Part shown: one piece after another, positions 11,800 to 58,733 of the stretch
Layout of the letters: each line of letters starts with the position of its first letter
How positions within the stretch are numbered: the stretch's first letter is position 1
Origin: an uncultured Gammaproteobacteria bacterium
GTDB taxonomy: Bacteria > Pseudomonadota > Gammaproteobacteria > JAURND01
Direction: 5' to 3'
DNA: 64,000 nt
Assembly (NCBI GenBank): GCA_963714975.1
Contig: CAVQQD010000002.1
Span: forward strand, 519,641-583,640
Translations under genes and position numbers: made by a program
Notes under the pieces: generated by a model
Database searches by the model: none
What the model saw: only the letters and a program-made list of their open reading frames with translations
What the model was told of the DNA's origin: nothing

Positions 11800-13209
11800 A
11801 TGGTGTTTAATCGTGATTATTTGTCCCAGATATTGCAGCAATTAAATTTACCACCTCAGATTATGGTTGCTTATAGCGGCGGCTTAGATTCCCACGCGCT
11901 GTTATATGCCCTAGTTGAGTTACGCAACTTAAATCCAGGACTTTCCTTGCGGGCAGTGCATATCGATCATGGCCTTAGTGCGCGTTCCGTCGAATGGAGT
12001 GCGCATTGTGTTAGGGTATGTCAACAATTAGCAATCGAATGTATCATCAAGAAAATCCAAGTTATAGCCGCCGAGGATAGTTTGGAAGAAGTGGCGCGAA
12101 ATTTAAGATATGCCGCTTTCGCTGAAATAATGATGCCCGGCGAATGTCTGGTGACGGCACACACCGTGGATGATCAAGCCGAAACCGTCTTGCTGCAATT
12201 ATTGCGAGGAGCAGGCATTCCAGGTTTGGCAGCAATGCCCGTGGTTAAACCATTGGGACCGGGTAAATTAGCTCGCCCGCTATTATCCATAAGTCGAGCA
12301 GCATTACATACTTTTGCGTGCGAAAAGCAATTACGTTGGATTGAAGATGAAAGTAACTTAAATACTAATTTTGATCGCAATTTTATTCGCCATCAGGTCT
12401 TGCCGATACTACGAAAGCGTTGGCCCAGTACGGCTAAAGTAATCGCCCGAACCGCGCGCCATTGTGCAGAAGCCAATGATTTACTAGCCGAACTTGCCAC
12501 ATCTGCAATTCCCGCTGAAGCCCTGTTCCCCGACGGGTCCTGCCGCGCGGGCAACCCGCCGTGCTCGCACACTGCGCGCGGCGTTGTTGCCCCACGCGTC
12601 ACCCGTCGGCCAAAGTACTATAGAGCGGAAATTGCTGATTCCATACTGGGCGGAAGGAGGGGAAATTTCGCGTTAACCATCTCATGCTTACAATCATTTG
12701 ATCCTAGTCAGCAAAAAAATGTATTGCGGGTGTGGCTGCGATCTCAGCAGTTTCGGGTGCCAAGTGAGGTGAAATTACATCAATTACAACAAGACTTTTT
12801 ACACTCCAAAGCGAGTGCAACGCCCTATATGCAATGGGCGGGAGTAGAGGTGCGACGTTTTAAGGATAATTTATACGCCATGCCACCCTTGTCCGCTCAT
12901 GATCCCGGAATAATCCTAACTTGGGATTTGCACCAGCCCCTGGCTTTACCCTCAGGTATCGGCGTTTTGCAACCGCACATGCTGGCAGCAGAAGGTGTCG
13001 ATCTCTCAAATGGTTCTTTAGTGACGATCCGTTTTCGGCAGGGGGGCGAACGGTTTAAGCCAGCAGGCCGTTTTGGGTCTCATCCTTTAAAAAAACTTTT
13101 TCAAGAATGGCAAGTACCGCCTTGGCTGCGTGATCGTATACCGCTCATTTATTTGGAAGGACATTTGGTCGCCGTGATTTGGCGGCCTTTTATTAGGGAT
13201 GTGGAGTAA
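11800..13209 (+). CDS. tilS: tRNA(Ile)-lysidine synthetase, carrying an in-frame GC-rich repeat insertion
   Basis: PP-loop 'AYSGGLDSHALL'; TilS C-terminal domain. The region 12527-12612 (about 70% GC) is translated as 'PDGSCRAGNPPCSHTARGVVAPRVTRRPKYY' and is paralogous to an insertion in nlpD. Confidence 0.85.
   Translation: MVFNRDYLSQILQQLNLPPQIMVAYSGGLDSHALLYALVELRNLNPGLSLRAVHIDHGLSARSVEWSAHCVRVCQQLAIECIIKKIQVIAAEDSLEEVARNLRYAAFAEIMMPGECLVTAHTVDDQAETVLLQLLRGAGIPGLAAMPVVKPLGPGKLARPLLSISRAALHTFACEKQLRWIEDESNLNTNFDRNFIRHQVLPILRKRWPSTAKVIARTARHCAEANDLLAELATSAIPAEALFPDGSCRAGNPPCSHTARGVVAPRVTRRPKYYRAEIADSILGGRRGNFALTISCLQSFDPSQQKNVLRVWLRSQQFRVPSEVKLHQLQQDFLHSKASATPYMQWAGVEVRRFKDNLYAMPPLSAHDPGIILTWDLHQPLALPSGIGVLQPHMLAAEGVDLSNGSLVTIRFRQGGERFKPAGRFGSHPLKKLFQEWQVPPWLRDRIPLIYLEGHLVAVIWRPFIRDVE
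12527..12612. repeat. GC-rich palindromic element (family 'gttgccccacgcgtcacccgtcgg') inserted in frame in tilS
   Basis: Inverted termini ccgacgggt ... acccgtcgg; shares 24-bp and 20-bp modules with 22858-22922 inside nlpD. Confidence 0.75.
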
Positions 13210-13486
13210 TGGCTAAGATAGTGATTGCTTTTTTATTAGGTCCATAATACCAAAAAATGCGATAAGCTGCCGGAGTGTTATTTTCAGCATAAGCTTCAAA
13301 AATTTCTTCCCCATGAGGTCCCTGCAGGGAAGAGAATTTATGAGTATTAAGACTTGAGTGTTTAGGGTTTGTTTCTAAGTAGCCTAAGGCTTTACGGACA
13401 GCTTTAAAGCGTTTTGATAACGCAGCACTTTGTTCAAGTTCATCTAAATCATGACTGGCTTGGGTACTAAATAATAGTTTGAACAT
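13193..13486 (-). CDS. RelE/ParE-superfamily toxin-like protein (type II TA toxin candidate)
   Basis: 97 aa, starting 19 bp downstream of the antitoxin-like gene; C-terminal 'YRIFWYYGPNKKAITILAITPHP' resembles the RelE/ParE/YoeB C-terminus. Family assignment tentative. Confidence 0.45.
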   Translation of the reverse strand: MFKLLFSTQASHDLDELEQSAALSKRFKAVRKALGYLETNPKHSSLNTHKFSSLQGPHGEEIFEAYAENNTPAAYRIFWYYGPNKKAITILAITPHP

Positions 13487-13504
13487 TTCAATTGTAATTG
13501 TTAG

Positions 13505-13777
13505 TTAGTCGATATCATCCTCATCGACATATTTTGCAAAGCTGCCTTTTTCGTGGACTTGCTGTGAAGCAGCATCTTTTATTCCTTGTGCCACTTTTTT
13601 CAAAGCAGCTTTATTATCAAATAACCATTTTTCGCGTGCTGGGATTTCGGTATAAGGCTCTAAAATAATTCGGTCATCTTTATCTTTTTTGATTAAAAAT
13701 CCACTCACACCCTCTGCCCATCGACCTAGGGTAATTCTGCCTTTGGAATCTGGTCTTACCATTTTTACACATTTCAT
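13505..13777 (-). CDS. AbrB/MazE/SpoVT-type swapped-hairpin antitoxin-like protein
   Basis: Start at 'MKCVKMVRPDSKGRITLGRWAEGVSGFLIKKDKDDRIILEP' preceded by GAGGTGAG SD and a TTGAAT-17-TATTCT promoter. The longer ORF in the track reads through upstream receiver-domain remnant and a repeat. Confidence 0.5.
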   Translation of the reverse strand: MKCVKMVRPDSKGRITLGRWAEGVSGFLIKKDKDDRIILEPYTEIPAREKWLFDNKAALKKVAQGIKDAASQQVHEKGSFAKYVDEDDID

Positions 13778-13785
13778 TTCACTCA

Positions 13786-13860
13786 CCTCACAAAAAAGAA
13801 TAGCCCTATGTGGGATATAATTCAAGTGGGAAATAAGAAAATGTCGGAACTCAGTGAAAA
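13786..13860. promoter_or_regulatory. Promoter/leader of the antitoxin gene (-35 TTGAAT, 17 bp, -10 TATTCT, SD GAGGTGAG); first copy of a duplicated ~70-bp segment
   Basis: Read on the minus strand; second copy at 14455-14525. Confidence 0.5.
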
Positions 13861-13861
13861 T

Positions 13862-13925
13862 GTCCCCATAAAAACTCAATAGAAATCCCCCTTTGAAAAA
13901 GGGGGGGTAGGGATTAAAGAGGTTG
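13862..13925. repeat. Dispersed palindromic element (ccccctttgaaaaaggggg / gggtaggg family)
   Basis: aaatccccctttgaaaaagggggggtagggatt; related copies at 2916-2983 and 24530-24645. Confidence 0.7.
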
Positions 13926-13989
13926 ACAACTACACAGCCAACGAACGGCGGCCGTTCTTGATTCTCAAAAAAGTAACCTGTTGGTGGCT

Positions 13990-14351
13990 GCGACAAAACT
14001 AATCTATTTAGTATTTGTTCGCATAATTCATATAGTACGGGTTTGTGCAGAAATCCGCCTAATTCTAGGTTTCGCGCTTCAGTTTTTAGTTTTTCATCCC
14101 CATGCGCGGTGGCGATGAGAATTGGTGTTTGGCTATATAGGGCCTGGGCTGTGCCGAAACTGGCGAGCAACTTCCATCCCATTTAAGTCGGGCAGACCCA
14201 GGTCACAGATGATTAACAGGTAGGGGTTATGCAGCTTCTCCAATGCGACTAGCCCACAATTGGCTATATCCACATGACAACCAAGCTGTTTAAAGGAGCC
14301 GCTGATGGCGCGGGTGGCCATTGGTTCGTCATCTCTGAAGGATGAAGACAT
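13990..14351 (-). pseudogene. Single-domain CheY-like response-regulator receiver, frameshifted
   Basis: N-terminal piece 'MSSSFRDDEPMATRAISGSFKQLGCHVDIANCGLVALEKLHNPYLLIICDLGLPDLNGMEVARQFR' and, in another frame, 'TPILIATAHGDEKLKTEARNLELGGFLHKPVLYELCEQILNRL'. Frame change near 14140-14180. Confidence 0.55.
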
Positions 14352-14362
14352 TAATAATTTGA

Positions 14363-14410
14363 TGGATGCTACTTTTAGAGATGGTTCTACTATAAGAAGC
14401 ACGTGGTAGT
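14363..14410. repeat. Direct repeat (about 48 bp, 85% identical) with 15153-15200; encodes a paralogous C-terminal tail '...DATFRDGSTIRSTW*'
   Basis: gatgctacttttagagatggttctactataagaagcacgtggtagtaa versus gatggtacttttggaaatgatgctactataagaagtacgcggtagtaa. Confidence 0.7.
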
Positions 14411-14454
14411 AATTAAATGAAATAGTGTTTCTTTGTTATCTTTTATTTGTTTCA

Positions 14455-15462: not shown

Positions 15463-17298
<1,836 letters not shown>

Positions 17299-18121: not shown

Positions 18122-19445
<1,324 letters not shown>

Positions 19446-19724
19446 GTGAAACCAGCAACGATCTTTCTAGTTTCGTTAGTAATTTTACTTGCTGTATTGC
19501 AATATAAACTTTGGGTCTCTCCCGAGGGGGTCCCCCAATTTTGGAAATTAAAACATAGCATTCAGCAAGTACATAAAGAAAATGCAGTTCTCCAAGAAAG
19601 AAATGCTTGGGTAGTGAGGGAGGTCAAGGAATTAAAGCATGGTATGGACGGAGTTGAAGAACGCGCTCGTGATGATTTTGGTTTAACTAAACAAGGGGAA
19701 GTTTTTTATCAGATTGTTGAATAA
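19446..19724 (+). CDS. ftsB: Cell division protein FtsB
   Basis: GTG start at the TM helix 'VKPATIFLVSLVILLAVLQYKLW'; coiled coil; C-terminal 'EERARDDFGLTKQGEVFYQIV' matches FtsB. The track's longer N-terminus is repeat-derived. Confidence 0.75.
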   Translation: MKPATIFLVSLVILLAVLQYKLWVSPEGVPQFWKLKHSIQQVHKENAVLQERNAWVVREVKELKHGMDGVEERARDDFGLTKQGEVFYQIVE

Positions 19725-20463
19725 TTCCTTGGCCCCCCTCACCCTAACCCTCTCCCACGAGGGGAGAGGGGATTTTATAAAATACTGGGCTATTATTCCT
19801 GCTGCAGGTCTTGGTAGACGGTTTGGTTCTGACACGCCGAAACAATACCTAATGCTCAAGGATAAAACTATCTTAGAACATACCCTCAATGTTCTCTTAT
19901 CCTATCCTTTGTTTCAAAAAATAGTCGTTGTGCTAGCTTCAGCAGATCCTTATTGGTCAACATTAACATTACCCAGTCGCACTAAAGAGCGGATTATCTG
20001 CGTTACTGGGGGCCAAGAGCGTTACATTTCGGTATATCAAGGTCTGGAAGTCCTTGATAAAATAGCCGCTCCTGAGGATTGGGTACTGGTGCATGATGCG
20101 GTGCGCCCTTGTCTTAACCATGCTGATTTAGATCGGCTTATCCAGGCATTAAAAGATCATCCCGTAGGAGGGCTACTTGGCATTCCAGCGCAGGACAGTT
20201 TAAAAGCAGTTGATCCACAGCAGAATGTGCAGCACACCGTAGATCGATCCAACATTTGGCAAGCGCAATCACCACAAATGTTTCGGTTCAATAAATTAAA
20301 GCAAGCTTTGGAAAAAGTGATTCGAGAACAACAGTCAGTGACTGATGATGCGGGGGCCATTCAGCTATTAGGCGAATCACCCCTGATGGTTGAAGGTAGT
20401 CGAGAGAACATAAAAATAACACGTCCCGAAGATTTGTTACTGGCAGAGAAGTTTATGCTATAA
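19714..20463 (+). CDS. ispD: 2-C-methyl-D-erythritol 4-phosphate cytidylyltransferase with N-terminal 20 aa encoded by a repeat element
   Basis: 'AIIPAAGLGRRFGSDTPKQYL' IspD motif. The only in-frame start is the ATG at 19714, so 'MLNNSLAPLTLTLSHEGRGD' (repeat 19735-19780) is translated. Confidence 0.85.
   Translation: MLNNSLAPLTLTLSHEGRGDFIKYWAIIPAAGLGRRFGSDTPKQYLMLKDKTILEHTLNVLLSYPLFQKIVVVLASADPYWSTLTLPSRTKERIICVTGGQERYISVYQGLEVLDKIAAPEDWVLVHDAVRPCLNHADLDRLIQALKDHPVGGLLGIPAQDSLKAVDPQQNVQHTVDRSNIWQAQSPQMFRFNKLKQALEKVIREQQSVTDDAGAIQLLGESPLMVEGSRENIKITRPEDLLLAEKFML
19735..19780. repeat. Dispersed palindromic element (gggagaggg family) forming the 5' coding end of ispD
   Basis: cccctcaccctaaccctctcccacgaggggagagggga. 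Confidence 0.7.
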
Positions 20464-23344: not shown

Positions 23345-25265
23345 GCGCATCCAACGATTAGATACTTTATTAGCAAACCAAATTGCTGCCGGAGAAGTGG
23401 TGAGCCGTCCTGCCTCTGCGTTGAAAGAGTTAGTTGAAAATAGCTTGGATGCGGGGGCAACGCAGATTGAAGTGACGTTAGAAAAAGGCGGTATTCAATT
23501 AATTCGCGTCCGGGATAATGGTCGGGGGATTCATAAAGAAGATTTACCGTTGGCTTTAAGCCGACACGCCACCAGTAAAATTTCCACGCTGGAAGAGTTA
23601 GAATGCATCCAATCCTTAGGTTTTCGTGGAGAAGCTTTGGCGAGCATTGCTTCGGTATCACGTTTGGTTTTAACTTCGCGCCAAGCCAATGAAACTTTGG
23701 CCTGGCAAATTAAAGCGGAAGGTCGGACGGCAGAAATTGAATTTAATCCGGTATCTCATCCCATGGGCAGCACTATTGAAGTGCGCGATTTATTTTTTAA
23801 TACACCAGCGCGGCGAAAATTTTTACGCTCAGAAAAAACCGAATATTCCCACTGTGAGGAATTGATTAATCGCATTGCATTAGCTTCTTTTCATGTTGCT
23901 TTTGTGCTGAAACATAATCAAAAAACTATTTTGCAATTGCCTCCCGCTATTTCTCAAGCAGAACAAGAGCAACGCGTGGGCAAATTGTGCGGAAATTTTT
24001 TTATCGAACAAGCCAAGGCTATACAGATTGGAAACCATTCACCCGTCGTCCCGCTCCCGCGACTTGATCGCGGGATTGTCCGCGGGATCCAGGATCCAGA
24101 AAGCAGGGATGCAGGATTTTCATTAGCGGGTTGGTTGGGCTTGCCGATTATTTCGCGCGCGCAGGCTGATTTGCAATATTTCTATGTCAATGGGCGCATG
24201 GTCCGTGATAAGTTAATTACTCACGCCATTAAACAAGCGTACCACGATGTAATGTATGGTCATCGCTATCCCGCCTATGTGTTATTTCTTAGTTTGGATC
24301 CAACTTTGGTTGATGTTAATGTGCACCCCACAAAATCCGAGGTGCGGTTTCGTGACAGTCGCTTTATTTATGATTTTTTATTTAGTCGCATCCATGAATC
24401 TTTGGCGCAAAAAGAGCAAGTCACCGCTGGAATTTCTGCTATAGCCGATTCAATATTCGCGCCAGAACCATGGGGGATGCAGCATCAATTGCAGATTAGT
24501 GAAGCAAAAGCAGACTACTTAGCGTACCAGGAAATCCCCCCTACCCCTCTTTTTCAAAGGGGGGGCGATAAAATTCCCCCCTTTTTCGAGGATGGGGATC
24601 AAGAAATTCCCCCCTTTGAAAAAGGGGGGGTAGAGGGGATTTCCTGCAGTTTAGCTCCCAGCCCCGTGCGGGAACGACTTGAGGGAGCTCTAGGCTATGC
24701 TCTTGGCCAATTACATGGCATCTTCATCCTAGCCGAAAATCAACAAGGCTTAGTGATTGTCGACATGCACGCCGCTCACGAACGTATTTTGTATGAAGAA
24801 TTAAAGCTAGCTCATCAGCGCGAGAAAATTGTGCGCCAAACCTTGTTAATTCCACTGACTTTATCATTGACGACGCGAGAGGCGGACTATGTGCAAGAAC
24901 AACAAGCTTTGTTTGCTGAGCTTGGGTTTGAACTCGAGCGAATTAGCCCAACGAGTTGTATTATTCGCCAGGTTCCTGTGTTATTGAAACAGGTGGATGT
25001 TTTGCAGTTAATCCGTGATGTGATAGCAGATTTTCTAACTCTGGAGAAAAGCCAGCGCATCGAACAACAATTCCATAAAGTTTTGGCGACTATTGCCTGC
25101 CACAGCTCGGCACGGGCTCATCGCCGTCTTACCCTCCCGGAAATGAATGCACTGTTGCGGCAACTGGAACAGACCGACCGCAGCGGTCAGTGCAATCATG
25201 GCCGTCCTACGATCAGGCAGTTTTCCCTGGAAGAATTGGATAAGTTATTTTTAAGGGGAAGATAA
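23337..25265 (+). CDS. mutL: DNA mismatch repair protein MutL carrying two in-frame repeat insertions in its linker
   Basis: GHKL ATPase motifs (ELVENSLDAGAT, DNGRGI, GFRGEAL); C-terminal dimerisation domain (QCNHGRPT). Insertions at 24041-24117 ('PVVPLPRLDRGIVRGIQDPESRDAGFS') and 24530-24645 ('PTPLFQRGGDKIPPFFEDGDQEIPPFEKGGVEG'). Confidence 0.9.
   Translation: MIERIQRLDTLLANQIAAGEVVSRPASALKELVENSLDAGATQIEVTLEKGGIQLIRVRDNGRGIHKEDLPLALSRHATSKISTLEELECIQSLGFRGEALASIASVSRLVLTSRQANETLAWQIKAEGRTAEIEFNPVSHPMGSTIEVRDLFFNTPARRKFLRSEKTEYSHCEELINRIALASFHVAFVLKHNQKTILQLPPAISQAEQEQRVGKLCGNFFIEQAKAIQIGNHSPVVPLPRLDRGIVRGIQDPESRDAGFSLAGWLGLPIISRAQADLQYFYVNGRMVRDKLITHAIKQAYHDVMYGHRYPAYVLFLSLDPTLVDVNVHPTKSEVRFRDSRFIYDFLFSRIHESLAQKEQVTAGISAIADSIFAPEPWGMQHQLQISEAKADYLAYQEIPPTPLFQRGGDKIPPFFEDGDQEIPPFEKGGVEGISCSLAPSPVRERLEGALGYALGQLHGIFILAENQQGLVIVDMHAAHERILYEELKLAHQREKIVRQTLLIPLTLSLTTREADYVQEQQALFAELGFELERISPTSCIIRQVPVLLKQVDVLQLIRDVIADFLTLEKSQRIEQQFHKVLATIACHSSARAHRRLTLPEMNALLRQLEQTDRSGQCNHGRPTIRQFSLEELDKLFLRGR
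24041..24117. repeat. Partial 'cgtcgtccc...gatcgcgggatcca' family element in frame in the mutL linker
   Basis: acccgtcgtcccgctcccgcgacttgatcgcgggattgtccgcgggatccaggatccagaaagcagggatgcagga; compare 44848-44880. Confidence 0.7.
24530..24645. repeat. Two tandem copies of the 'ccccctttttcaaaggggg' palindromic element in frame in mutL
   Basis: ccccctacccctctttttcaaagggggggcgataaaattcccccctttttcgaggatggggatcaagaaattcccccctttgaaaaagggggggtagagggga. Confidence 0.75.
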
Positions 25266-31905: not shown

Positions 31906-32941
31906 TCAAGAAGGAGTACCAGGAATACTTGTCACATGTTGTTCTGGTGGAGATGGTTTGTCACGTGAGCTATCTTTGGCGACGACAGATGGTGGGCTTT
32001 GGCGATGCTTAAATAAATCGGTTAGGTTGTTTATTTTCTGTAGTGCGGGTACAGAAATTTCCAGGTCAGGCAGGCCTGAGTATTTTATCTCGAGTTTTTT
32101 TGGTGATAAATTTTGGGATGCTTCATACTCACGCAGGAGTCTGATCTTTGATTTCTCAAATAACACAGCATCAATCTCTGGAATAAAAGGGACCAGGCCG
32201 ATTAAATTGAGGCTGTCTTCTATTTGCGTCAGGTGTTTAACGATGAGTTTAAATTGTTCTGGGGTAAATGCTCGGCGAAATTCTGCAACCGCTTTAAAGA
32301 TTATAAGTCCATAGGAAAGCCAGTCTATATTGTTTTGTGTTTTTCTTTGGTGCATATTTATTTTTTTTAAATATTTAGCGCAGAAATAAAAATAATCTGG
32401 GTCATGTTGTAATTTTTCACATTTTTTTGTCAAATCATCCAGGAAATGAGATTGTCTATTTAGAAAATTCTGCCAAGATTCGTTTTGGTTCATCCGATAG
32501 GGCTTACTATCAAAGAAAGCAGCTATTTGCTCGAGTTTTTCGTGAAGAGCTTGGAATTGCTGTAGAGAAAGTGAAGGTGTTAGATCAAAATAGTCAATAC
32601 CATACTGTTTAAATAAATTACGCAGCTGTCGGGCACTGAAAACATTGGAGATTAGCACTTTCTCGGTGATATAGGCAATTAACGTACTGTATTTTTCTTT
32701 ACTTGGTTTATCGGATTCCAGCTCGCTCGCGAGCTTCACAGAGTGCTCTTAAGTAATGAAAAACGATATAAGTTTCAGACCGATGTTTTTCACTATCATG
32801 AGCTAAGGGTTTTGTCAGATTATCAATCCATAATTGGGCTTCATTTAAAGAATAGTTTAAAGCATTTGCAAAAAAAATAGATTTTGGTTGAAAATCATGA
32901 GGATTGATGGTTGGCAAATGGGGAGGTTTTCGTTGTTCCAT
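31906..32941 (-). CDS. Hypothetical protein (about 345 aa), apparently one gene split by a frameshift near 32725
   Basis: ORFs 32708-32941 (AGGAG RBS, 'MEQRKPPHLPTINPHDF...') and 31906-32739 abut in adjacent frames ('...HYLRALCEA' / 'SELESDKPSKEKY...'). No recognised domain. Confidence 0.4.
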
Positions 32942-32961
32942 AGCAATCTCCTGGGTTTCAA

Positions 32962-33056
32962 GTGTCATCCCGAGCGCAGCGAGGGATCTGTTGTTCATGC
33001 CACATTCATGAGAATCCCTCGCTTCGCTCGGGATGACACCGCTCGGGATGACACCT
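32962..33056. repeat. Dispersed palindromic element (gtcatcccgagcgaagcgagggatc family) abutting the maeB stop codon
   Basis: gtgtcatcccgagcgcagcgagggatctgttgttcatgccacattcatgagaatccctcgcttcgctcgggatgacaccgctcgggatgacacc; 'gccacattcatgaga' block shared with 58563-58625. Confidence 0.75.
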
Positions 33057-34737
33057 AAGGGAATTTTCTTAAACTAACATACTTAGGTTCCCAAATTTGC
33101 TCGTTGATACAGGTTGCGACATCCGCATAAGTGAGGGTAGCCACGCCGTCTTTTTGGGCTTGCAATGCAACACAAATGGCAATTTCACGAGCAATTTTTT
33201 GTGCATTTTTAAGCGGTGGTAATACCGACCCATGCCTATCTTGATGGATAGGCGCACACCGATTCAGCGCTAGGCACGCTTCCCACAGCATGTTATCAGT
33301 AACCTCCTTGGCTTTGACGGTAATGACGCCTAACCCAATTCCTGGAAATATTAACGCATTATTGCATTGAGCAATAGGCCAATCTTGATTTTGGTAATGA
33401 ACAGGTGGGAAAGGGCTGCCAGTGGCAATGAGAGCTTTACCTTGGGTCCAGTGAAATAAATCTTCTGGCGTGGCCTCAACTTTTTCTGTGGGATTTGAGA
33501 GCGGAAGAATAATTGGTGTTGCAGTGTGTGCTGCCATGGCTTGTACCACTTCTTTCGTAAAAGCACCACTTTGCGCAGAACAACCAATCAGAATGGTTGG
33601 TTTGATATGGGTTACGACATCATATAATTGTGGCGAAGGCAGCCAATCCACTAGTTCATCGGCGGGGCGAGCAAAGGGGACTTGGGCTGGAGTTAAATCA
33701 GTAATGGTATCTACGAGTAAACCGGGTTTATCAATCAACCAAAAGCGTCGGCGGGCTTCGCTGTAACTTAGGCCCATCCGCACCATGGCAGCGGTGATTT
33801 GATTAGCGACCCCAGTTCCGGCACTACCGCTGCCGAAAATGACAATGCGTTGCTCGATTAAAGAAGAATCCGTACTTTTAATCGCGGCCAATAACGCTGC
33901 CAAGGTGGTCGCTCCTGTGCCTTGGATATCGTCATTAAATGAACAAATATCTTGTTGGTAACGGTGTAAGATGCGATTGGCATTATCCCGACCAAAATCT
34001 TCCCAGTGAAGAAAAACTTGCGGTAAGTTTTCTTTGACTGCCTGCACGAAAAGCTCGATAAACTCATCATAAGCTCGGCCGCTAATGCGCGGATGGCGTA
34101 AACCAAGATAGAATGGGTCATTGAGTAGATCTTCATTATCAGTGCCAAGGTCTAATAGAATTGGCAAAGTTCTTAAGGGATTAATTCCGCCGCAAATCGT
34201 GTAAACCATTAGTTTCGCCACTGGAATTAACATCGCACCAACCCCTTGGTCGCCAATGCCTAAAACCCCGCCGCCATCGCTGACTACAATCAAATCCACT
34301 TCAGGATTACTGCGGTTCATTAAAATTTCTGGGATACGAAAACGGTCTGCATAGGAAATATATAAACCACGAGCTTGCTGAAATTCACGGCTAAATTTTT
34401 TAATTGCCGTGCTGACAGTTGGAGTGTAGACGATGGGAATCATCTCTTCTTCATGATGTTGCATCAACTTGTAAAATAACACTTGATTATAATCATGGAG
34501 CTTGTTGAGAAAGATATTTTTTTGCAGTGGTGTGGTATAAGTTTGATATTGCAAATAAGCACGTTGTACTTGTTGCTCTAAAGTTTCTATTTGTGCCGGT
34601 AATTTTCCAGTAAGATTAAACAGACTGCGCTCTTCTTCGGTAAAAGCGGTCCCTTTGTTTAGTTGTGGTGTGGTCAATAAAGGCTTGCCACTGAGAGAGG
34701 TTTCAATCCAATTTTTTTTAATTTTAAAATTCAGCAT
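33055..34737 (-). CDS. NAD(P)-dependent malic enzyme (SfcA/MaeA type)
   Basis: 560 aa; malic enzyme motifs ('FNDDIQGTGATTLAALLAA', 'IVIFGSGSAGTG'). Confidence 0.9.
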   Translation of the reverse strand: MLNFKIKKNWIETSLSGKPLLTTPQLNKGTAFTEEERSLFNLTGKLPAQIETLEQQVQRAYLQYQTYTTPLQKNIFLNKLHDYNQVLFYKLMQHHEEEMIPIVYTPTVSTAIKKFSREFQQARGLYISYADRFRIPEILMNRSNPEVDLIVVSDGGGVLGIGDQGVGAMLIPVAKLMVYTICGGINPLRTLPILLDLGTDNEDLLNDPFYLGLRHPRISGRAYDEFIELFVQAVKENLPQVFLHWEDFGRDNANRILHRYQQDICSFNDDIQGTGATTLAALLAAIKSTDSSLIEQRIVIFGSGSAGTGVANQITAAMVRMGLSYSEARRRFWLIDKPGLLVDTITDLTPAQVPFARPADELVDWLPSPQLYDVVTHIKPTILIGCSAQSGAFTKEVVQAMAAHTATPIILPLSNPTEKVEATPEDLFHWTQGKALIATGSPFPPVHYQNQDWPIAQCNNALIFPGIGLGVITVKAKEVTDNMLWEACLALNRCAPIHQDRHGSVLPPLKNAQKIAREIAICVALQAQKDGVATLTYADVATCINEQIWEPKYVSLRKFP

Positions 34738-34770
34738 TATTATTTTTCACTAGTATCAGATTTTTGCCAG

Positions 34771-34830
34771 GTGTCATCCCGACTCCAGGGTTGTCATCCC
34801 GAACGAAGTGAGGGATCCCTCGCTGCGCTC
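34771..34830. repeat. Inverted arm and core of a gtcatcccga-family element immediately upstream of maeB
   Basis: gtgtcatcccgactccagggttgtcatcccgaacgaagtgagggatccctcgctgcgctc. Confidence 0.75.
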
Positions 34831-35057
34831 GGGATGACACCCTGGAGTCGGGATGACACCCTGGAGTCGGGATGACACCCTGGAGTCGGGATGACACCCT
34901 GGAGTCGGGATGACACCCTGGAGTCGGGATGACACCCTGGAGTCGGGATGACACCCTGGAGTCGGGATGACACCCTGGAGTCGGGATGACACCCTGGAGT
35001 CGGGATGACACCCTGGAGTCGGGATGACACCCTGGAGTCGGGATGATGCCCCGAGAG
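34831..35057. repeat. Tandem repeat: 19-bp unit gggatgacaccctggagtc x 11 perfect copies plus a degenerate 12th
   Basis: Units begin at 34831, 34850, 34869 ... 35021; derived from the right arm of the adjacent palindromic element. Not CRISPR-like (no spacers). The three overlapping minus-strand ORFs with 19-aa repeats in the track are artefacts of this array. Confidence 0.9.
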
Positions 35058-35987
35058 TCATGTTTTTTTTTCTTGCTTTTGTTCCTTTTTTTCTTCCTCG
35101 AAGTGGGGATTCGCAGTTGGTATCAAACTAATTAATCGCTTGTGATTTCCTTTCGTTTTGTTGCTCTCTGGATGATTTTGAATTCGAATATATTCTATGC
35201 CACTGGTTTGATCTTCTTGCCAGGGCAAGTGCTGATATACACTTTCACCAATCAATGGCAGCACAGGATATTTAATGATATCGAAAAACGGGGAGAAATC
35301 AAAATCTTTGGGAGTGAACAAGCGTGGGTTGCGACTCACCAGAGTGATTCCTTCTTTATCTTCAATGATTTCCGGTAAAATCGGGAAGTGCACTGTTTGA
35401 AATGCGCTAGCAATCATTGAAGAACATATTTCCTCCGTGGGTTTTAGCGCGTTATGTACAAATAAGGTAGAACGCCATTTTCTGGGCAAAACTCCCCACG
35501 GAAATAAAAAACGAAATAAATCGATCACATGCCTGAGACTATAGCGCATTCCAAGGTGGTTAATGCCATAGCCAATCACTTTTTGTGCGTCTTCGCGTGA
35601 TAGCCCACGGGGGCGGCAGATGCGAATATTGTAATCTTTGTAGCGCACCAGCGAGGTCACAATAGTTCCCCGGCCGACCATGCTTTCAATCAGCAATTGC
35701 TCATCTGGTGGCCCTTTGTAATATTTTTTAACCTGAGCTCGCAGGTGAATATCATCGATATCATACAGGCGACCAATATACAGGGTAGAGTGAGACCACA
35801 TGCTATGAGTGACCTGCTTAATAATATCACTCATGCGATTACGCCCTTCTACCAGCAGGACATCGCCAGGTCTGATTTCAAAACGAATTTTTTCAAAATC
35901 GTATAAAAAGGCCGGTTTTAGTGGGGGTTCGCGTAAGAACCATTTGCTAAAACTAATAATAATCCGTTGGGCAAATTTAGACTTCAT
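35058..35987 (-). CDS. Hypothetical protein, possibly YiiX/permuted-papain-fold (NlpC/P60-like) family
   Basis: Start 'MKSKFAQRII' 1 nt after the purB stop. 'PGDVLLVEGRNRMSDIIKQVTHSMWSHSTLYIG' resembles YiiX-type motif. Lys/Glu-rich C-terminal tail. Assignment tentative. Confidence 0.4.
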   Translation of the reverse strand: MKSKFAQRIIISFSKWFLREPPLKPAFLYDFEKIRFEIRPGDVLLVEGRNRMSDIIKQVTHSMWSHSTLYIGRLYDIDDIHLRAQVKKYYKGPPDEQLLIESMVGRGTIVTSLVRYKDYNIRICRPRGLSREDAQKVIGYGINHLGMRYSLRHVIDLFRFLFPWGVLPRKWRSTLFVHNALKPTEEICSSMIASAFQTVHFPILPEIIEDKEGITLVSRNPRLFTPKDFDFSPFFDIIKYPVLPLIGESVYQHLPWQEDQTSGIEYIRIQNHPESNKTKGNHKRLISLIPTANPHFEEEKKEQKQEKKT

Positions 35988-35988
35988 G

Positions 35989-37386
<1,398 letters not shown>

Positions 37387-42121: not shown

Positions 42122-42883
42122 ATGAAACAAGACGAAAAGATCAGGACGCGCGATTTAAATTTTTACTATGCCAAGTTTCGTGCGCTTAAAAATATTAATG
42201 TGAGCGTCATCAAAAATCATGTGACAGCACTGATCGGCCCCTCAGGTTGCGGCAAATCGACTTTGTTACGCACTTTTAATCGCATGTATGAGTTATATGA
42301 TGAACAACACGCTTTAGGGGAAGTGTGGTTAGATCAGGAAAATATTCTAACGCCTCGCTATGATTTAAATCGATTGCGCAGCCGAGTTGGGATGGTATTT
42401 CAAAAACCAACGCCATTTCCTATGTCGATTTTTGATAATGTCGCCTTTGGGGTAAAGTTATATGAAAATTTAAGCCATGTGGAGTTAGCTGCCCGAGTTG
42501 AATGGGCACTTCGCAAGGCTGCCTTATGGAGAGAAGTAAAGGATATATTAAAACTAAGTGGCCTAGGACTTTCGGGTGGTCAGCAGCAACGGCTTTGTAT
42601 TGCTAGAGCCATCGCGGTAAGACCTGAGGTTATTTTATTAGATGAACCAACTTCGGCATTAGACCCGCTCTCTACCGCTCGTATTGAAGAATTAATTCGG
42701 GAATTAAAAGACGATTATACTATTTGCATCGTCACGCATAATATGCACCAAGCAAAAAGAATTTCCGATTACACCGCATTTATGTATTTAGGGCGAATGA
42801 TTGAATACAATAAAACTGAAGTAATTTTTTCTAACCCAACAGAGCAAGCAACCAAAGATTTCATTTCGGGAAAAGTGGGATAA
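42122..42883 (+). CDS. pstB: Phosphate ABC transporter ATP-binding protein
   Basis: 'GPSGCGKST', '[14 protein letters not shown]', '[10 protein letters not shown]'. Confidence 0.9.
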
Positions 42884-42888
42884 TTTTT

Positions 42889-43575
42889 ATGCAAGCAAAT
42901 CTGGGCATTTTAATTGTCGAAGATGAGGAACCCATTAAGGAAATGCTTAAACGTTGTTTAGAAATGGCGGATTATCGTGTCATGGAAGCTACAGATACAA
43001 CTCAAGCTGAAAAGCGAATTCAGCAAGAGATGCCGGATTTATTATTGTTAGATTGGATGCTGCCTGGCCTAAGTGGCATTGATTATGTGCAAGTGTTACG
43101 CAAGAGCGCTCTAACCGCACATTTACCTATTATTTTGTTAACAGCTCGTGCCGAAGAAGAAAGTAAGATCCGCGGCTTAGATATGGGTGCGGATGATTAT
43201 GTCACTAAGCCTTTTTCACCACGAGAACTTATTACGCGCATCAAAACGGTGCTGCGACGTGGTCCTTTGGTGGAGGCAAATGCTATTTTGATGGTGCGAG
43301 GTTTAATGGTTGATACTCAGTCCTGCCAGGTGACACTGGCAGGAAGGAAATTATCGCTCACCACCGACAATTATCAGCTGTTGCTTTTTTTTATGCAGCA
43401 CCCTCGAAAAGTTATTTCTCGTGAAAGTTTATTAATGCATGTTTGGGGTGGAGATAAAGGCGCCAGTGATCGCAGTGTCGATGTTCAGATATTGCGCTTG
43501 CGCAAGATATTAGCACAGCATGGCTGTGATGATTTGATTCACACGGTAAGAGGTTTGGGATACCAATTTCGCTGA
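42889..43575 (+). CDS. phoB: Phosphate regulon response regulator PhoB (OmpR family)
   Basis: Receiver 'ILIVEDEEPIKEML...LLDWMLPGLSG' and winged-helix output domain; 228 aa. It follows pstB directly with no phoU between. Confidence 0.85.
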   Translation: MQANLGILIVEDEEPIKEMLKRCLEMADYRVMEATDTTQAEKRIQQEMPDLLLLDWMLPGLSGIDYVQVLRKSALTAHLPIILLTARAEEESKIRGLDMGADDYVTKPFSPRELITRIKTVLRRGPLVEANAILMVRGLMVDTQSCQVTLAGRKLSLTTDNYQLLLFFMQHPRKVISRESLLMHVWGGDKGASDRSVDVQILRLRKILAQHGCDDLIHTVRGLGYQFR

Positions 43576-44324
43576 TGCCAATGAATAGTAATGAACTCGT
43601 GTTGACCTCTTTAATATTTTTAGATACCCAATTGCGTCTCTTGGAAAGTATGCGGCAAGATTTTGTCGCGAATGTTTCTCATGAATTACGTACGCCGCTT
43701 ACCGTATTTCATGGCTATTTAGAAATGCTTTTGGATCTGACAAATCAACCAGGTAATGAGCAACATCAAATCTTAGAGCAAATGTATCAACAAAGTTTAC
43801 GCATGAGCCAGTTGATTGAAGATTTGTTGCTTTTGTCACGTTTGGATAGTTATGTCAGTAAAGATAAATGCAGTTCAGTTGATGTGCCTTATTTACTTAA
43901 AACCATTGCTGAAGATGCTCGAGTGCTTAGTCGAGAGCAACAGCACAAAATCGAACTCTATATCGATGATCAATTAAAAATCCAAGGGATTGAGCGTGAA
44001 TTAAGCAGTGCATTTTCCAATCTTATTATTAATGCTATTAATTATACCCCGATGGGCGGTGAAATTAAGATTCGTTGGTTTAAGCAACAGCATCAGGCCT
44101 ACCTGGAAGTCATTGATACCGGTATTGGTATTGCGCCCGAACATATTCCTCGACTGACCGAGCGATTTTATCGAGTAGACAAGGCTCGTTCACGCAGCAC
44201 CGGTGGTACTGGTTTAGGCTTGGCCATTGTGAAACATGTTTTGTTACGACATAAAGCCAATTTAAAAATTGCCAGCGAGTTAGGTCAGGGCAGTAGCTTT
44301 ACCTGCATTTTTCCGCTGCTCTAG
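43575..44324 (+). CDS. phoR: PhoR-like histidine kinase consisting only of DHp and catalytic domains (no TM, charged or PAS sensor region)
   Basis: ORF begins at the phoB stop. H-box 'VSHELRTPLTVFHGYLEML' lies about 30 aa from the N-terminus; N, G1 and G2 boxes present; 249 aa against about 430 aa for canonical PhoR. Confidence 0.7.
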   Translation: MPMNSNELVLTSLIFLDTQLRLLESMRQDFVANVSHELRTPLTVFHGYLEMLLDLTNQPGNEQHQILEQMYQQSLRMSQLIEDLLLLSRLDSYVSKDKCSSVDVPYLLKTIAEDARVLSREQQHKIELYIDDQLKIQGIERELSSAFSNLIINAINYTPMGGEIKIRWFKQQHQAYLEVIDTGIGIAPEHIPRLTERFYRVDKARSRSTGGTGLGLAIVKHVLLRHKANLKIASELGQGSSFTCIFPLL

Positions 44325-45991: not shown

Positions 45992-46032
45992 ATCAGTCAT
46001 GAGATCCCTCGCTTCGCTCGGGAGGACAGCTG

Positions 46033-46057
46033 GGATGAATCAAGCATTTTAAAATCC
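46033..46057. repeat. 22-bp direct repeat (g[ga]tgaatcaagcattt(t)aaaatc) flanking the yhcG-like gene; second copy 47109-47130
   Basis: ggatgaatcaagcattttaaaatcc versus ggtgaatcaagcatttaaaatcttc read directly. Confidence 0.7.
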
Positions 46058-49429: not shown

Positions 49430-50511
49430 TTAACGCAACTTCAGCGAAGCGAGTCCGCATAGCACCAGCATGAAGGTAATAATCCAAAACCGCACGATTA
49501 CTCGAGGTTCAGGCCAGCCTTTGAGCTCAAAATGGTGATGAAGGGGAGCCATTTTAAAAATACGTTTACCGGTGAGCTTAAATGAAGCGACCTGTAATAT
49601 CACCGAAAGCGTTTCTATTACAAATACCCCGCCCATAATAAAGAGCACTAATTCTTGGCGAACAATTACTGCCACAATACCTAAAGCAGCGCCTAGTCCT
49701 AAAGCGCCTACATCACCCATAAATACCTGGGCAGGATAAGTGTTGAACCATAAAAAGCCTAAGCCTGCTCCGACCAGAGCGGCGCAAAAGACTGCGACTT
49801 CTCCTGCACCAGGGACATAGGGAATGGTTAAATATTTAGAAAATTCAAAATTACCACTTAAATAAGCAAAAATAGCCATAGCGCCAGCGACCATTACTGT
49901 GGGCAGAATGGCCAGCCCATCTAGGCCATCAGTCAGGTTGACGGCATTACTGGTGCCGACAATCACAAAATAAGCCAATAAAATATACAACAAACCTAAG
50001 TTAATACTGACATTCTTGAGATAGGGAATTAACAACTGGGTTTCAGCAGGTGTTTTCGCCATGTAGTAGAGAATAACAGCGATGGTAATACCCAATATAG
50101 ATTGCCAAAGATATTTCCAGCGCGCTGGTAAACCACTGGGTGATTTCTTGCTAAGTTTTAGATAATCATCTAACCATCCAATAATGCCAAATCCCAGCAT
50201 ACCAAACAGGGTTAGCCAAATGTAGGGATTGGCTAAATACCCCACAACAAAATGCTGGCGCTGATAGCAATGAGGATTAGGGTGCCTCCCATAGTGGGTG
50301 TGCCGGCTTTGGAGAAATGGCTCTTCGGTCCATCGTTGCGCACCACTTGCCCGACTTGATGATGACTGAGCGCATCAATCATTTTGGGGCCGACAATCAG
50401 AGCGATCACCAGCGCAGTGAGCGCGGCGAGAATCGAGCGAAAAGTGAGATATTGAAAAACCCGAAAGCCTTCGTAATAGTGTTGTAAAAATTGCGTTAGC
50501 CAAAGTAACAT
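49430..50511 (-). CDS. mraY: Phospho-N-acetylmuramoyl-pentapeptide transferase; apparent -1 error in a G4 run near 50246
   Basis: Two ORFs (50233-50511, 49430-50245) align to MraY. Adding one G to 'ttgtggggtattta' restores '...[14 protein letters not shown]...'. Confidence 0.85.
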
Positions 50512-50512
50512 A

Positions 50513-51926
50513 TTAAGCCTCTCCTTCTAAAGCAGCGACAATTTTCCCATTTTGCATCGAGCGCGATCCTTTAATCAATGCGGTCGTTTGAGCATTAAGT
50601 TGTAATTTCAAGGCAGCAATTAATTGCTGTTGTTCAGAAAAATGTTGGGCTTGCTGACCAAAGGCTGCTACTGCTAAGCGGCTCAACTCACCATAGGCAA
50701 ATAATTGCGTAATGCCCAAACGCTGTGCTTCATAGCCAAGCAATTTTAATGAAATATTCGGGCCCATAGGAGCCTAATTCTTTCATGTCGGCAAGTACCA
50801 AAATTTTAATTCCGGGCATATGAGCTAATACTTCAATAGCTGCTTGGGCTGAGCGTGGATTGGCATTGTAACTATCATCAATAATCCGTGCGCCATTGGT
50901 TAAGTATTTTATTTGTAAGCGTTTGTTTACCGCTTGAGTATTTTCCAAGCCCTGTTTTATCGCAGTCAATGGTATATTCAGTGCGCAAGCGCAAGCAGCT
51001 GCTGCCAAGGCATTGGCAATATTATGTTTTCCTAGCAGAGGCAGTTGAATAAAAATGGTTCCATAGGGGGTATGTAGAGTAAATTCAGGATTTCCTTCGG
51101 GATTTATTAAGGGACTTTCTGCCCAAATAGATGCTTTTTTCTGAAGGCCAAAGTGGAGAATTTTCTTGGTTGGCACGAGAGATTCCCAATAGGGGGCAAA
51201 GTGATCGTCAGCATTAATGATGGCAATTCCAGTCTCATCGAGTCCGCGAAAAATTTCGCCTTTTGCCTGTGCTACTCCTTCTAGAGTTTGTACTCCTTGC
51301 AAATGAGCAGGTGCTGCATTAGTAATTAGGGCAATGGTCGGATGAGCGAGCTGCGATAAATGAGCAATTTCACCAAAATGATTCATCCCTATTTCAATCA
51401 CGGCATATTGATGATCAGAATTTAATCCCAATAGGGTCAGCGGGACACCGATTTCATTATTAAAACTTTTTTCGCTAGCCAAAACTTTGTTGGATCCCTC
51501 GCTGCGCTCGGGATGACACCCCTGCTCGGGATGACACGCCTGCTCGGGATGACCCCCCCCCTGCTGCAGAATGCTGGCGAGCATAGAGCGCACGGTAGTT
51601 TTACCACAACTACCGGTGATGCCGATCATTGGCAGCGTAAATTGTTGCCGATGAAAACGCGCAAATTGTCCCAGTGCCTGAATCGTGTCGTTGACTTGTA
51701 GCTGTGGTAGCGGGCAGGGCAGGGGGTGCTGGACCAAGGCGGCAGCGGCCTGCTGTTGTTTTGCCATGGCAATAAAATCATGGCCATCGAAATGAGGGCC
51801 TTTGATGGCGACAAATAATTCTCCAGGTTGTAAGCTGCGGGTATCCGTGCTCACACCTTGAAAACAGACATCTGCGCCTAACAGTTGGCCGCTAAGTAAA
51901 TGGCTAAGACTTGAAAGTTGTATCAT
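50513..51926 (-). CDS. murF: UDP-MurNAc-pentapeptide synthetase MurF; apparent single-base indel near 50760, plus an in-frame repeat insertion
   Basis: ORFs 50730-51926 and 50513-50767 match the MurF N- and C-terminal parts. Frame change at 'tatgggcccgaat' (ggg/ccc runs). The 51492-51561 element is translated '[23 protein letters not shown]' just after the P-loop 'GSCGKTT'. Confidence 0.85.
51492..51561. repeat. gtcatcccga-family element with three partial 15-bp tandem units and a C9 homopolymer, in frame inside murF
   Basis: ggatccctcgctgcgctcgggatgacacccctgctcgggatgacacgcctgctcgggatgaccccccccc; C-run 51553-51561. Confidence 0.8.
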
Positions 51927-58467: not shown

Positions 58468-58625
58468 GGAAATCCCCTCTCCCCCGCCTGAGCGTCAGCG
58501 AAGGAAGGTGGGAGAGGGTTAGGGAGAGGGGGGTGGTGGATCTGGCTCTGCCCTCATCCGTATGCTTTGCCACATTCATGAGATCCCTCGCTTCGCTCGG
58601 GATGACATCTTTCGCTCGGATGACA
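58468..58625. repeat. Cluster of a gggagaggg-family element and a gtcatcccga-family element upstream of the ankyrin-like ORF
   Basis: tcccctctcccccgcctgagcgtcagcgaaggaaggtgggagagggttagggagaggggggtgg then gccacattcatgagatccctcgcttcgctcgggatgacatctttcgctcggatgacacc. Confidence 0.75.
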
Positions 58626-58733
58626 CCTGGGGGGAGGGAATAAAGCCGAGGCTAAAAAAACATTGGAAAAAAATCCTAATTTTTGGTAAATTATTGCCAT
58701 TCAGATTATTTAAAATTAAGAGGGGTGAGATAT

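Follow-up and report, generated by a model that had tools for sequence, protein, structure and literature searches.

Introduction

The closest described counterparts of the element analysed here are the CGTC-tagged repetitive extragenic palindromic (REP) sequences, a superfamily defined by Di Nocera, De Gregorio and Rocco (2013, BMC Genomics 14:522; PMC3733652) that includes dRS3 of Neisseria and RPE-4 and RPE-6 of Rickettsia. By that definition, the element carries a CGTC tag, often in the form TGTC, an 8-9-bp stem whose first pairs are A-T and T-A, a 4-5-nt loop and a short unpaired tail with the consensus CCA, and most copies are organized as head-head (HH) dimers (PMC3733652). CGTC REPs occur in five phyla, have no dedicated transposase and lie between co-directional or convergent open reading frames (ORFs), at most about 20 bp from the 3′ end of the upstream ORF, with some copies being intragenic; CGTC-1 elements encode peptides such as CHSRRSGNP and CYSRESRNP (PMC3733652 and its supplement). 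The reiteration of complete REPs or dimers along with DNA from their flanks is mentioned as well, and the way in which these repeats spread is described as unknown (PMC3733652). Here, we examine a palindrome of this kind in a 64,000-nt stretch of DNA from an uncultured gammaproteobacterium (hereafter, the window; GenBank assembly GCA_963714975.1, contig CAVQQD010000002.1, positions 519,641 to 583,640), in which one arm of the palindrome is extended into a tandem array of 19-bp units, immediately upstream of a malic-enzyme gene.

We consider it probable that the locus consists of a REP-like, non-coding palindrome that was inserted into a conserved gene spacer and had the end of one of its arms expanded by slippage, without any dedicated function. 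The array is real but fairly ordinary, and REPs of this kind are widespread and have already been described. What a previous examination of the letters alone (the sequence-only reading) had missed is that the element belongs with a described, cross-phylum repeat superfamily and that duplication of arm ends is a trait of the whole family.

Anatomy of the array and its palindrome

Tandem Repeats Finder (TRF) resolves the array into 11.5 copies of a 19-bp period with 100% matches, 0 indels and a score of 436 (Table 1), in agreement with the eleven perfect copies and one degenerate copy counted previously. Read on the minus strand, the unit combines 7 nt of flank-like filler, CTCCAGG, with the 12-nt outer end of a hairpin arm, GTGTCATCCCGA; the 10-mer GGGATGACAC occurs 18 times in the window, against an expectation of 0.07. 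On the plus strand, between 34760 and 35060, a left inverted segment, gccaggTGTCATCCCGACTCCAGGGTTGTCATCCCGAACGAAGTGAGGGATC, is abutted by CCCTCGCTGCGCTCGGGATGACACCCTGGAGTC and followed by copies of GGGATGACACCCTGGAGTC (eleven perfect ones in total, including the one within the abutting segment) and then by the degenerate unit GGGATGATGCCCCGAGAGTC, the oldest-looking of the series, the final 2 nt of which are shared with the TGA stop codon (35058-60, minus strand) of the upstream 319-aa ORF. The array had been placed between the malic-enzyme start (34737) and the upstream stop (35058), and indeed the element fills this gap entirely.

An inverted-repeat search showed that positions 34770-34791, to the left of the array, are 100% complementary to every unit junction and that the core arms, at 34789-34815 and 34816-34842, have 85% pairing and no spacer between them. 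Together, the left and right arms form a ~47-bp palindrome without spacer, centred on GGATCC. The earlier proposals that the left flank is the inverse arm and that the array has grown from one arm of a palindromic element are both borne out by this layout, in which the unit is the outer arm end plus filler and the inverted partner is in place. The distance from the end of the core to the tag of the partner, ~25 nt, is below that of all 87 dimers found elsewhere (minimum, 40 nt), and the left arm combines a core containing 3-4 mismatches with 22 outer nt in perfect complementarity to the array.

Each 19-bp unit also holds a CCTGG (CCWGG) and a GAGTC (GANTC) site, so that the array would present potential methylation or restriction motifs at high density, and the palindrome is centred on a GGATCC site.

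A dispersed family related to the CGTC-tagged REPs

The 23-nt core of the right arm, TCATCCCGAGCGNAGCGAGGGAT, is present in at least 120 metagenome contigs and in 13 IMG/VR viral contigs. The GC content of these contigs ranges from 45 to 73%, and the identity of the core across this range implies that it is carried by many lineages. The usual architecture is nTGTCATCCCGAGCGNAGCGAGGGATCtgc, a variable loop and then gcaGATCCCTCGCTNCGCTCGGGATGACA. The family statistics are based on 169 arms taken from the metagenome and viral contigs; GTCAT is preceded by T in 146 of them and by C in 16, and the arms in the window carry TGTC or CGTC. The stem starts with AT...AT and comprises 9 positions (ATCCCGAGC/GCGAGGGAT), with G.A/A.G mismatches at positions 6-7, and its outer triplet co-varies, 11 of the 12 variant arms being fully paired (TCC/GGA, CCT/AGG, TTC/GAA). 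The loop is a 3-nt GNA, with N being C in 68 arms, A in 62, G in 22 and T in 17; without counting the closing C-G pair, it becomes a loop of 5 nt (CGNAG). The tail reads CTG in 82 arms, CTC in 28, CTT in 20, CTA in 13 and CCA in 1. For 87 of the 169 arms, an inverted partner lies 40-88 nt downstream, with the tags outside; an inverted tag upstream, with the tags inside, accompanies 6.

With the CGTC REPs, this family shares the unpaired (C/T)GTC end tag, the beginning of the stem with A-T and then T-A, the prevalence of tags-outside HH dimers that can form long hairpins and the presence in several phyla; no associated transposase was found next to 133 loci of our family. Equally shared is the placement between co-directional ORFs, against the 3′ end of the upstream ORF, to which the element sometimes supplies the stop codon: in the window, the array element overlaps the stop of the upstream C92-like gene, the copy at 32962 abuts the malic-enzyme stop, and further copies reside in murF and pyrG. 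Some copies in both groups are intragenic, with peptides of the C-H-x type, CHSRRSGNP in the published elements and CHPERSEGS in the murF and pyrG frames described here. By contrast, the stem interior of our family, ATCCC-GA-GC / GC-GA-GGGAT, contains two G.A mismatches and is capped by a GNA triloop, rather than forming a plain 8-9-bp stem with a 4-5-nt loop, and the predominant tail is CTG (82/169) instead of CCA. Reiteration of the tag-side half of an arm alone, here in up to 11.5 copies, is not described in the 2013 paper, and the sequence strings of our family are absent from it and from its supplements (PMC3733652). Because the tag, the A-T start, the HH dimers and the location agree, whereas the stem interior, the tail and the exact sequence differ, we regard the family as a relative or a new member of the CGTC-tagged superfamily rather than one of its four named families, an assignment based on the features tested, most of which match.

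At the gathering threshold, Rfam produced no family match across the whole window and 13 element-bearing loci, and at a permissive threshold it returned only sub-threshold generic hairpin (miRNA) noise in 32900-35100. BLAST searches of plasmid and phage collections with the arm yielded nothing meaningful, and a full-text literature search for the sequence strings of the element yielded no relevant paper. Several of the IMG/VR contigs (L139, L142, L144 and L147) are related phage contigs in which a terminase gene adjoins the arm.

Other known repeat systems resemble the locus in part. As in the REP doublets (REPINs) that are paired with REP-associated tyrosine transposases (RAYTs) and in the bacterial interspersed mosaic elements (BIMEs) of Escherichia coli, which contain GTAG REPs, two inverted hairpin repeats give rise to a larger hairpin, the elements are dispersed, intergenic and devoid of target-site duplications, and clusters can be tandemly reiterated. 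However, the tag is TGTC or CGTC, not GTAG, and the near-identity of the 23-mer over a GC range of 45-73% contrasts with the lineage-specific pairing of REPs and RAYTs; furthermore, no gene resembling a RAYT or Y1 transposase was seen beside 133 family loci or, judging by ORF layout, in the window.

With the variable-number tandem repeat (VNTR) loci used in multiple-locus VNTR analysis (MLVA) of bacteria, the array has in common the short, identical, head-to-tail intergenic units, 11.5 copies at 100% identity, and the degenerate terminal copy; the unit, however, derives from an arm of a mobile or dispersed palindromic repeat rather than from unique sequence, and the array is known here from one genome. 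QMITE1 and QMITE2 of Coxiella burnetii, as described by Wachter et al. (2018; PMC5896051), are elements of 150-400 bp with direct-repeat target duplications, and QMITE2 carries a GTAG REP. These, too, are small palindromic or non-autonomous repeats from a related order and are found in 3′ untranslated regions, between genes or overlapping ORFs, but our family has no target duplication and carries a TGTC tag, a distinction drawn from the published description of the QMITEs (PMC5896051).

Three further candidates were rejected. For a miniature inverted-repeat transposable element, inverted termini are present, but there is no target-site duplication in the flanks of the full copies inspected, namely, those in L032, L038, L055, L057, L059 and L060 and the window copies at 17160 and 32962. 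For a CRISPR array, the units are contiguous, with no spacers. For iterons, the neighbours are purB, the C92-like gene and the malic-enzyme gene, with no replication initiator among them.

The orthologous spacer in related genomes

The gene downstream of the array had been named maeB. This name is wrong, given that the 560-aa product matches NF010052 with 789 bits, whereas MaeB is an NADP-malic enzyme of ~760 aa with a C-terminal phosphotransacetylase (PTA)-like domain and a match to the NADP-ME model, and that model, PRK12861, yields only 43 bits against a cutoff of 1178. The gene encodes an NAD-dependent enzyme of the MaeA/SfcA type (Table 1).

An exact look-up of the 560-aa sequence found no database record. 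Among 5.8 billion protein clusters, the best homologue, on contig L016, has 76% identity; GTDB species genomes yielded relatives of at most 68% identity, the best of them in Coxiellaceae-like or unclassified gammaproteobacterial metagenome-assembled genomes (MAGs). On L016, the order purB / C92-like gene / malic enzyme is the same, the C92-like stop is separated from the malic-enzyme ATG by 14 bp, and there is no copy of the family. The same gene order is found on L014 (68% identical), with a gap of ~90 bp and no element in the spacer, and six more MAGs have purB directly upstream of the malic-enzyme gene. The family core is absent from 15 related genome loci and from L016, the closest contig. 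Given that the closest relatives have short gaps without the element, the 320-bp spacer in the window indicates insertion of the element into an operon-like string of genes with a conserved order, purB / C92-like / malic enzyme. The earlier expectation that a transcript from upstream would traverse the element is upheld by this conserved order and by the gaps of 14 and ~90 bp in the relatives.

Tag-side duplication of arm ends

In the window, 4 of 7 exact arms are preceded by additional copies of the tag (1, 2, 10 and 1 extra copies, with periods of 14, 18, 19 and 15 bp, respectively), and in the metagenome and viral set, 12 of the 169 arms (7%) have 1-3 extra tag copies with periods of 15-25 bp. 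An unbiased TRF run over 859 kb of these metagenome and viral loci detected 10 partial arrays that touch the core, and every one of them consists of flank, tag and 5′ half-stem, ending +5 to +16 nt into the core; inner-side partial arrays numbered 0 of 10 in this run, and two further cases duplicate the whole arm or the whole dimer. The units of the partial arrays are 14-25 bp long, with both unit boundaries differing from locus to locus, and the 11.5 copies upstream of the malic-enzyme gene make up the largest array seen, all others having at most 3.6. Tandem duplication of arm ends is a family-wide habit that is not peculiar to the malic-enzyme locus.

The same tag-side habit was observed in a different arm variant: at 16243-16283 of L014, the outer end of a simpler palindrome, TGTCATCCT...AGGATGACA, is duplicated as 13 bp x 2.2.

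Slipped-strand mispairing is the accepted growth mechanism of VNTR and minisatellite loci, and the variable lengths and boundaries of the units point to imprecise replication errors and argue against a site-specific enzyme. Slippage at a stalled polymerase is the most likely mechanism. A REP-like, non-coding dimer of hairpin arms, tagged with (T/C)GTC on the outside, would have entered the short spacer of the conserved gene string; a duplication of the outer arm end and the ~7 nt next to it would have come first, followed by growth to 11.5 identical copies through replication slippage, probably triggered by stalling of the polymerase upon entering the hairpin from the tag side. The ~1.5 complementary units in the left arm, the zero spacer and the short core-to-tag distance suggest a specific order of events, from a single arm through arm-end duplication and an inverted duplication, which would have yielded the zero-spacer palindrome, to further one-sided expansion. 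The strict tag-side bias of the partial duplications is a modest but somewhat new general point, which fits slippage stalled by a hairpin and could inform the evolution of transposase-less REPs.

Several observations weigh against this scenario. The copy number comes from one assembly of one genome of the lineage. The mismatched core of the left arm next to a perfect outer segment is not what a simple inverted duplication followed by decay would predict. A single arm is predicted to fold at only -3.5 kcal/mol (z -0.6; nearest-neighbour model), so that the argument for stalling rests on the dimer hairpin and on the stability of minihairpins with a GNA triloop and sheared G.A pairs, for which high stability has been published. 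Moreover, arm-end duplications are far more common in the window genome (4/7) than in the metagenome set (7%), and a lineage-specific factor could be involved. Finally, the array may exert a functional effect on malic-enzyme expression.

Alternatively, an enzyme working at the tag or hairpin, for example, an HUH/tyrosine RAYT-like transposase or an IS110-type recombinase, could have left the partial-arm arrays as footprints of repeated abortive cleavage, joining or re-initiation at the (T/C)GTC tag. This possibility would account for the tag-side position of all partial arrays and for their ends within the ascending stem, and the excess of arm-end arrays here (4/7 arms against 7% elsewhere) would suggest an activity specific to the lineage; the mode of spreading of CGTC REPs, as noted, is given as unknown (PMC3733652). 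Nevertheless, we consider this quite unlikely, given that the unit length (14-25 bp) and both boundaries vary by locus, leaving no fixed cleavage position, that no recurrent neighbouring gene or transposase was found near the motif among 133 loci, where short-chain dehydrogenases and a group of related phage contigs were all that emerged, and that the CGTC REPs are themselves reported without a dedicated transposase (PMC3733652). A transposase-like gene is also not evident by ORF layout in the 64-kb window, which is a weak point because most of the ORFs were not run against protein-family models.

A broader version of the same idea is that the tag-side half-hairpin duplications, found in unrelated metagenome lineages and carried to an extreme here, are footprints of the process by which CGTC/TGTC-tagged REPs are copied, for instance, by a host- or element-encoded single-strand DNA enzyme that repeatedly initiates abortively or transfers strands at the tag. 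We find this version equally doubtful; if it were true, loci like the 11.5-copy array would provide a handle on the spread of "orphan" REPs that lack a transposase.

The assembly gives some reason for caution. The mraY gene (49430-50511) is split by a single frameshift at profile position 55 into pieces that match profile positions 2-54 and 56-321, murF (50513-51926) is likewise split at ~346 into pieces matching positions 1-345 and 348-418, and other overlapping same-strand ORF fragments are found at 986-2216, 13193-14435, 19359-20463 and 42835-44324, a pattern that suggests either an indel-prone assembly or a decaying, pseudogene-rich genome. An artefactual origin of the array or of its copy number is, nonetheless, very unlikely. 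Artefacts alter the number of copies but do not create repeats, the eleven copies are base-perfect and are set in a consistent inverted partner, and there are four other arm-end arrays of the family in the window as well as similar arrays in independent metagenome assemblies. The locus is a candidate marker of length polymorphism for an uncultured Coxiellales-like lineage, and it recalls that arrays of this sort are broken or collapsed by short-read assembly.

Possible consequences for transcription and translation

In the DNA model, the segment 34767-34865 folds into a ~47-bp stem (dG -50.1 kcal/mol, z -12.4), and the array units alone do not fold (z +1.1). The same hairpin of ~95 nt, ending ~30 nt before the malic-enzyme ATG, is predicted for the sense-strand RNA, whose centroid structure leaves the array unpaired. 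The sequence-only reading had envisaged a highly structured leader of ~290 nt; this holds for the ~95-nt palindrome and fails for the remainder. According to these models, a read-through transcript would carry ~220 nt of unstructured repeat and one long hairpin, which would be the main consequence of an array that we take to have no dedicated function.

In a promoter and terminator scan, sites were no more frequent than in shuffled sequence, and no convincing sigma-70-type promoter was found between the array and the ATG. Accordingly, the malic-enzyme gene is probably expressed by read-through from upstream, and its expression would depend on reading through the ~47-bp hairpin. By analogy with other REPs, effects on polarity, processing or stability of the transcript are plausible. 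REPs near stop codons have also reportedly been discussed in connection with trans-translation by Liang, Rudd and Deutscher in 2015.

Such effects raise the question of whether the array and hairpin constitute a selected cis-regulatory leader, that is, a copy-number-tunable (phase-variable) attenuator, an insulator or an RNA-processing site that sets the expression of the malic enzyme relative to the upstream genes. In a conserved series of co-directional genes, the element takes up the entire spacer, its very stable predicted hairpin ends shortly before the ATG, read-through dependence is probable, and CGTC and GTAG REPs are thought to act as RNA elements beside the 3′ ends of ORFs (PMC3733652). 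However, the element is missing from the same spacer in the two nearest relatives, and similar elements are found at unrelated loci, where even murF and pyrG contain copies, a distribution to be expected of a selfish or neutral repeat. Furthermore, there is no U-tract behind the hairpin, which does not include the ribosome-binding region either, and the array units are unstructured. On balance, a selected leader appears rather unlikely, and we favour the insertion of a repeat without dedicated function.

All three minus-strand frames are open through the array, and one of them contains a 95-aa ORF, 34774-35061(-), whose ATG overlaps the upstream TGA. In principle, the ATGA overlap would allow translational coupling, so that the array could encode a repetitive peptide. 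Yet the 19-bp period, not being a multiple of 3, cycles through the three frames, the 95-aa ORF has no homologue among 5.8 billion protein clusters, and the open frames are explained by a unit without stop triplets on the minus strand. A coding role was rejected on these grounds and is extremely improbable.

Table 1. Elements of the TGTC/CGTC-tagged repeat family and adjacent genes in the window
Feature	Coordinates	Strand	Basis or remark
Tandem array, 19 bp x 11.5, unit TCGGGATGACACCCTGGAG	34829-35046	.	TRF and sequence
Degenerate distal unit, 20 nt, GGGATGATGCCCCGAGAGTC	35040-35059	.	Sequence and ORF end at 35058
Right arm, consensus core, TGTC-tagged, GTGTCATCCCGAGCGCAGCGAGGGATC on the minus strand	34816-34842	-	Matches the 23-nt metagenome core
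Left inverted partner, ~1.5 inverse units plus degenerate core arm GTCATCCCGAaCGaAGtGAGGGATC	34767-34815	+	Inverted-repeat search, DNA and RNA folds
Second member, tags-outside (HH) dimer, 26-nt spacer	32962-33054	.	Inverted-repeat search, 96% self-complementary
HH dimer fused to the pyrG 3′ end, with a 14 bp x 2.6 duplication of the left arm end	17160-17255	.	
Single arm plus 18-bp x 2.9 arm-end array, in frame in murF	51493-51565	-	
Half element of the 32962-type subfamily (spacer and right arm), ~19-bp duplicated arm end	58566-58630	-	Intergenic
Single degenerate arm, GTCCTCCCGAGCGAAGCGAGGGATCTCATGA	46000-46035	-	Intergenic
NAD-dependent malic enzyme, MaeA/SfcA type, 560 aa	33055-34737	-	NF010052, 789 bits; Pfam malic and Malic_M; no PTA domain
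Upstream 319-aa gene, weak Peptidase_C92/YiiX-like match	35058-36017	-	Ortholog order in L016 and L014
purB, further upstream	35989-37365	-	

Other repeats in the window

The family core, GTCATCCCGAGCGNAGCGAGGGAT, is present at six loci within the window (Table 1), and the three full copies are all HH dimers; weak core matches at 19664 and 61321 were inspected and rejected as chance. The second copy next to the malic-enzyme gene had been reported to abut its stop codon, as it does directly, but with an end at 33056; the element ends 2 nt earlier, and the stop codon occupies 33055-57. Its outer right arm is duplicated as 15 bp x 2.1 (TRF). The sequence-only reading had proposed that the two copies flanking the malic-enzyme gene make it prone to deletion or inversion; the homology between them amounts to only 26-27 nt, and short flanking homology of this kind is a generic property of REP-like repeats.

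Two of the copies are embedded in genes. In pyrG (15463-17298, plus strand), the CTP synthase profile stops at residue 560 of 611, so that ~51 C-terminal residues are encoded by the element, in the same CHPERSEGS frame as the murF insertion, and kdsA starts 5 nt past the new stop. In murF (50730-51926, minus strand), the insertion lies between the P-loop and the NNxIGxP motif and adds ~21-24 residues, which are skipped by the murF profile match. The 18-bp period of the murF array is a multiple of 3 and preserves the frame, unlike the 19-bp period of the intergenic array, and the in-frame insertion resembles those of RPE elements in Rickettsia.

A second dispersed family consists of G/C-run palindromes (CCCTCTCCC...GGGAGAGGG, CCCTCACCCTAACCC), with copies at 19405-19446, 19733-19775, 58500-58545 and 17145-17165. 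Two of these adjoin TGTC-tagged arms, forming small mosaics reminiscent of BIME and NIME clusters. Finally, a tandem repeat of 33 bp x 2.7, imperfect and containing C6/G8 runs (CCCCCCTTTTTCAAAGGGGGGGGATAAGAAATT), is found at 24544-24630 and has no relation to the TGTC family.

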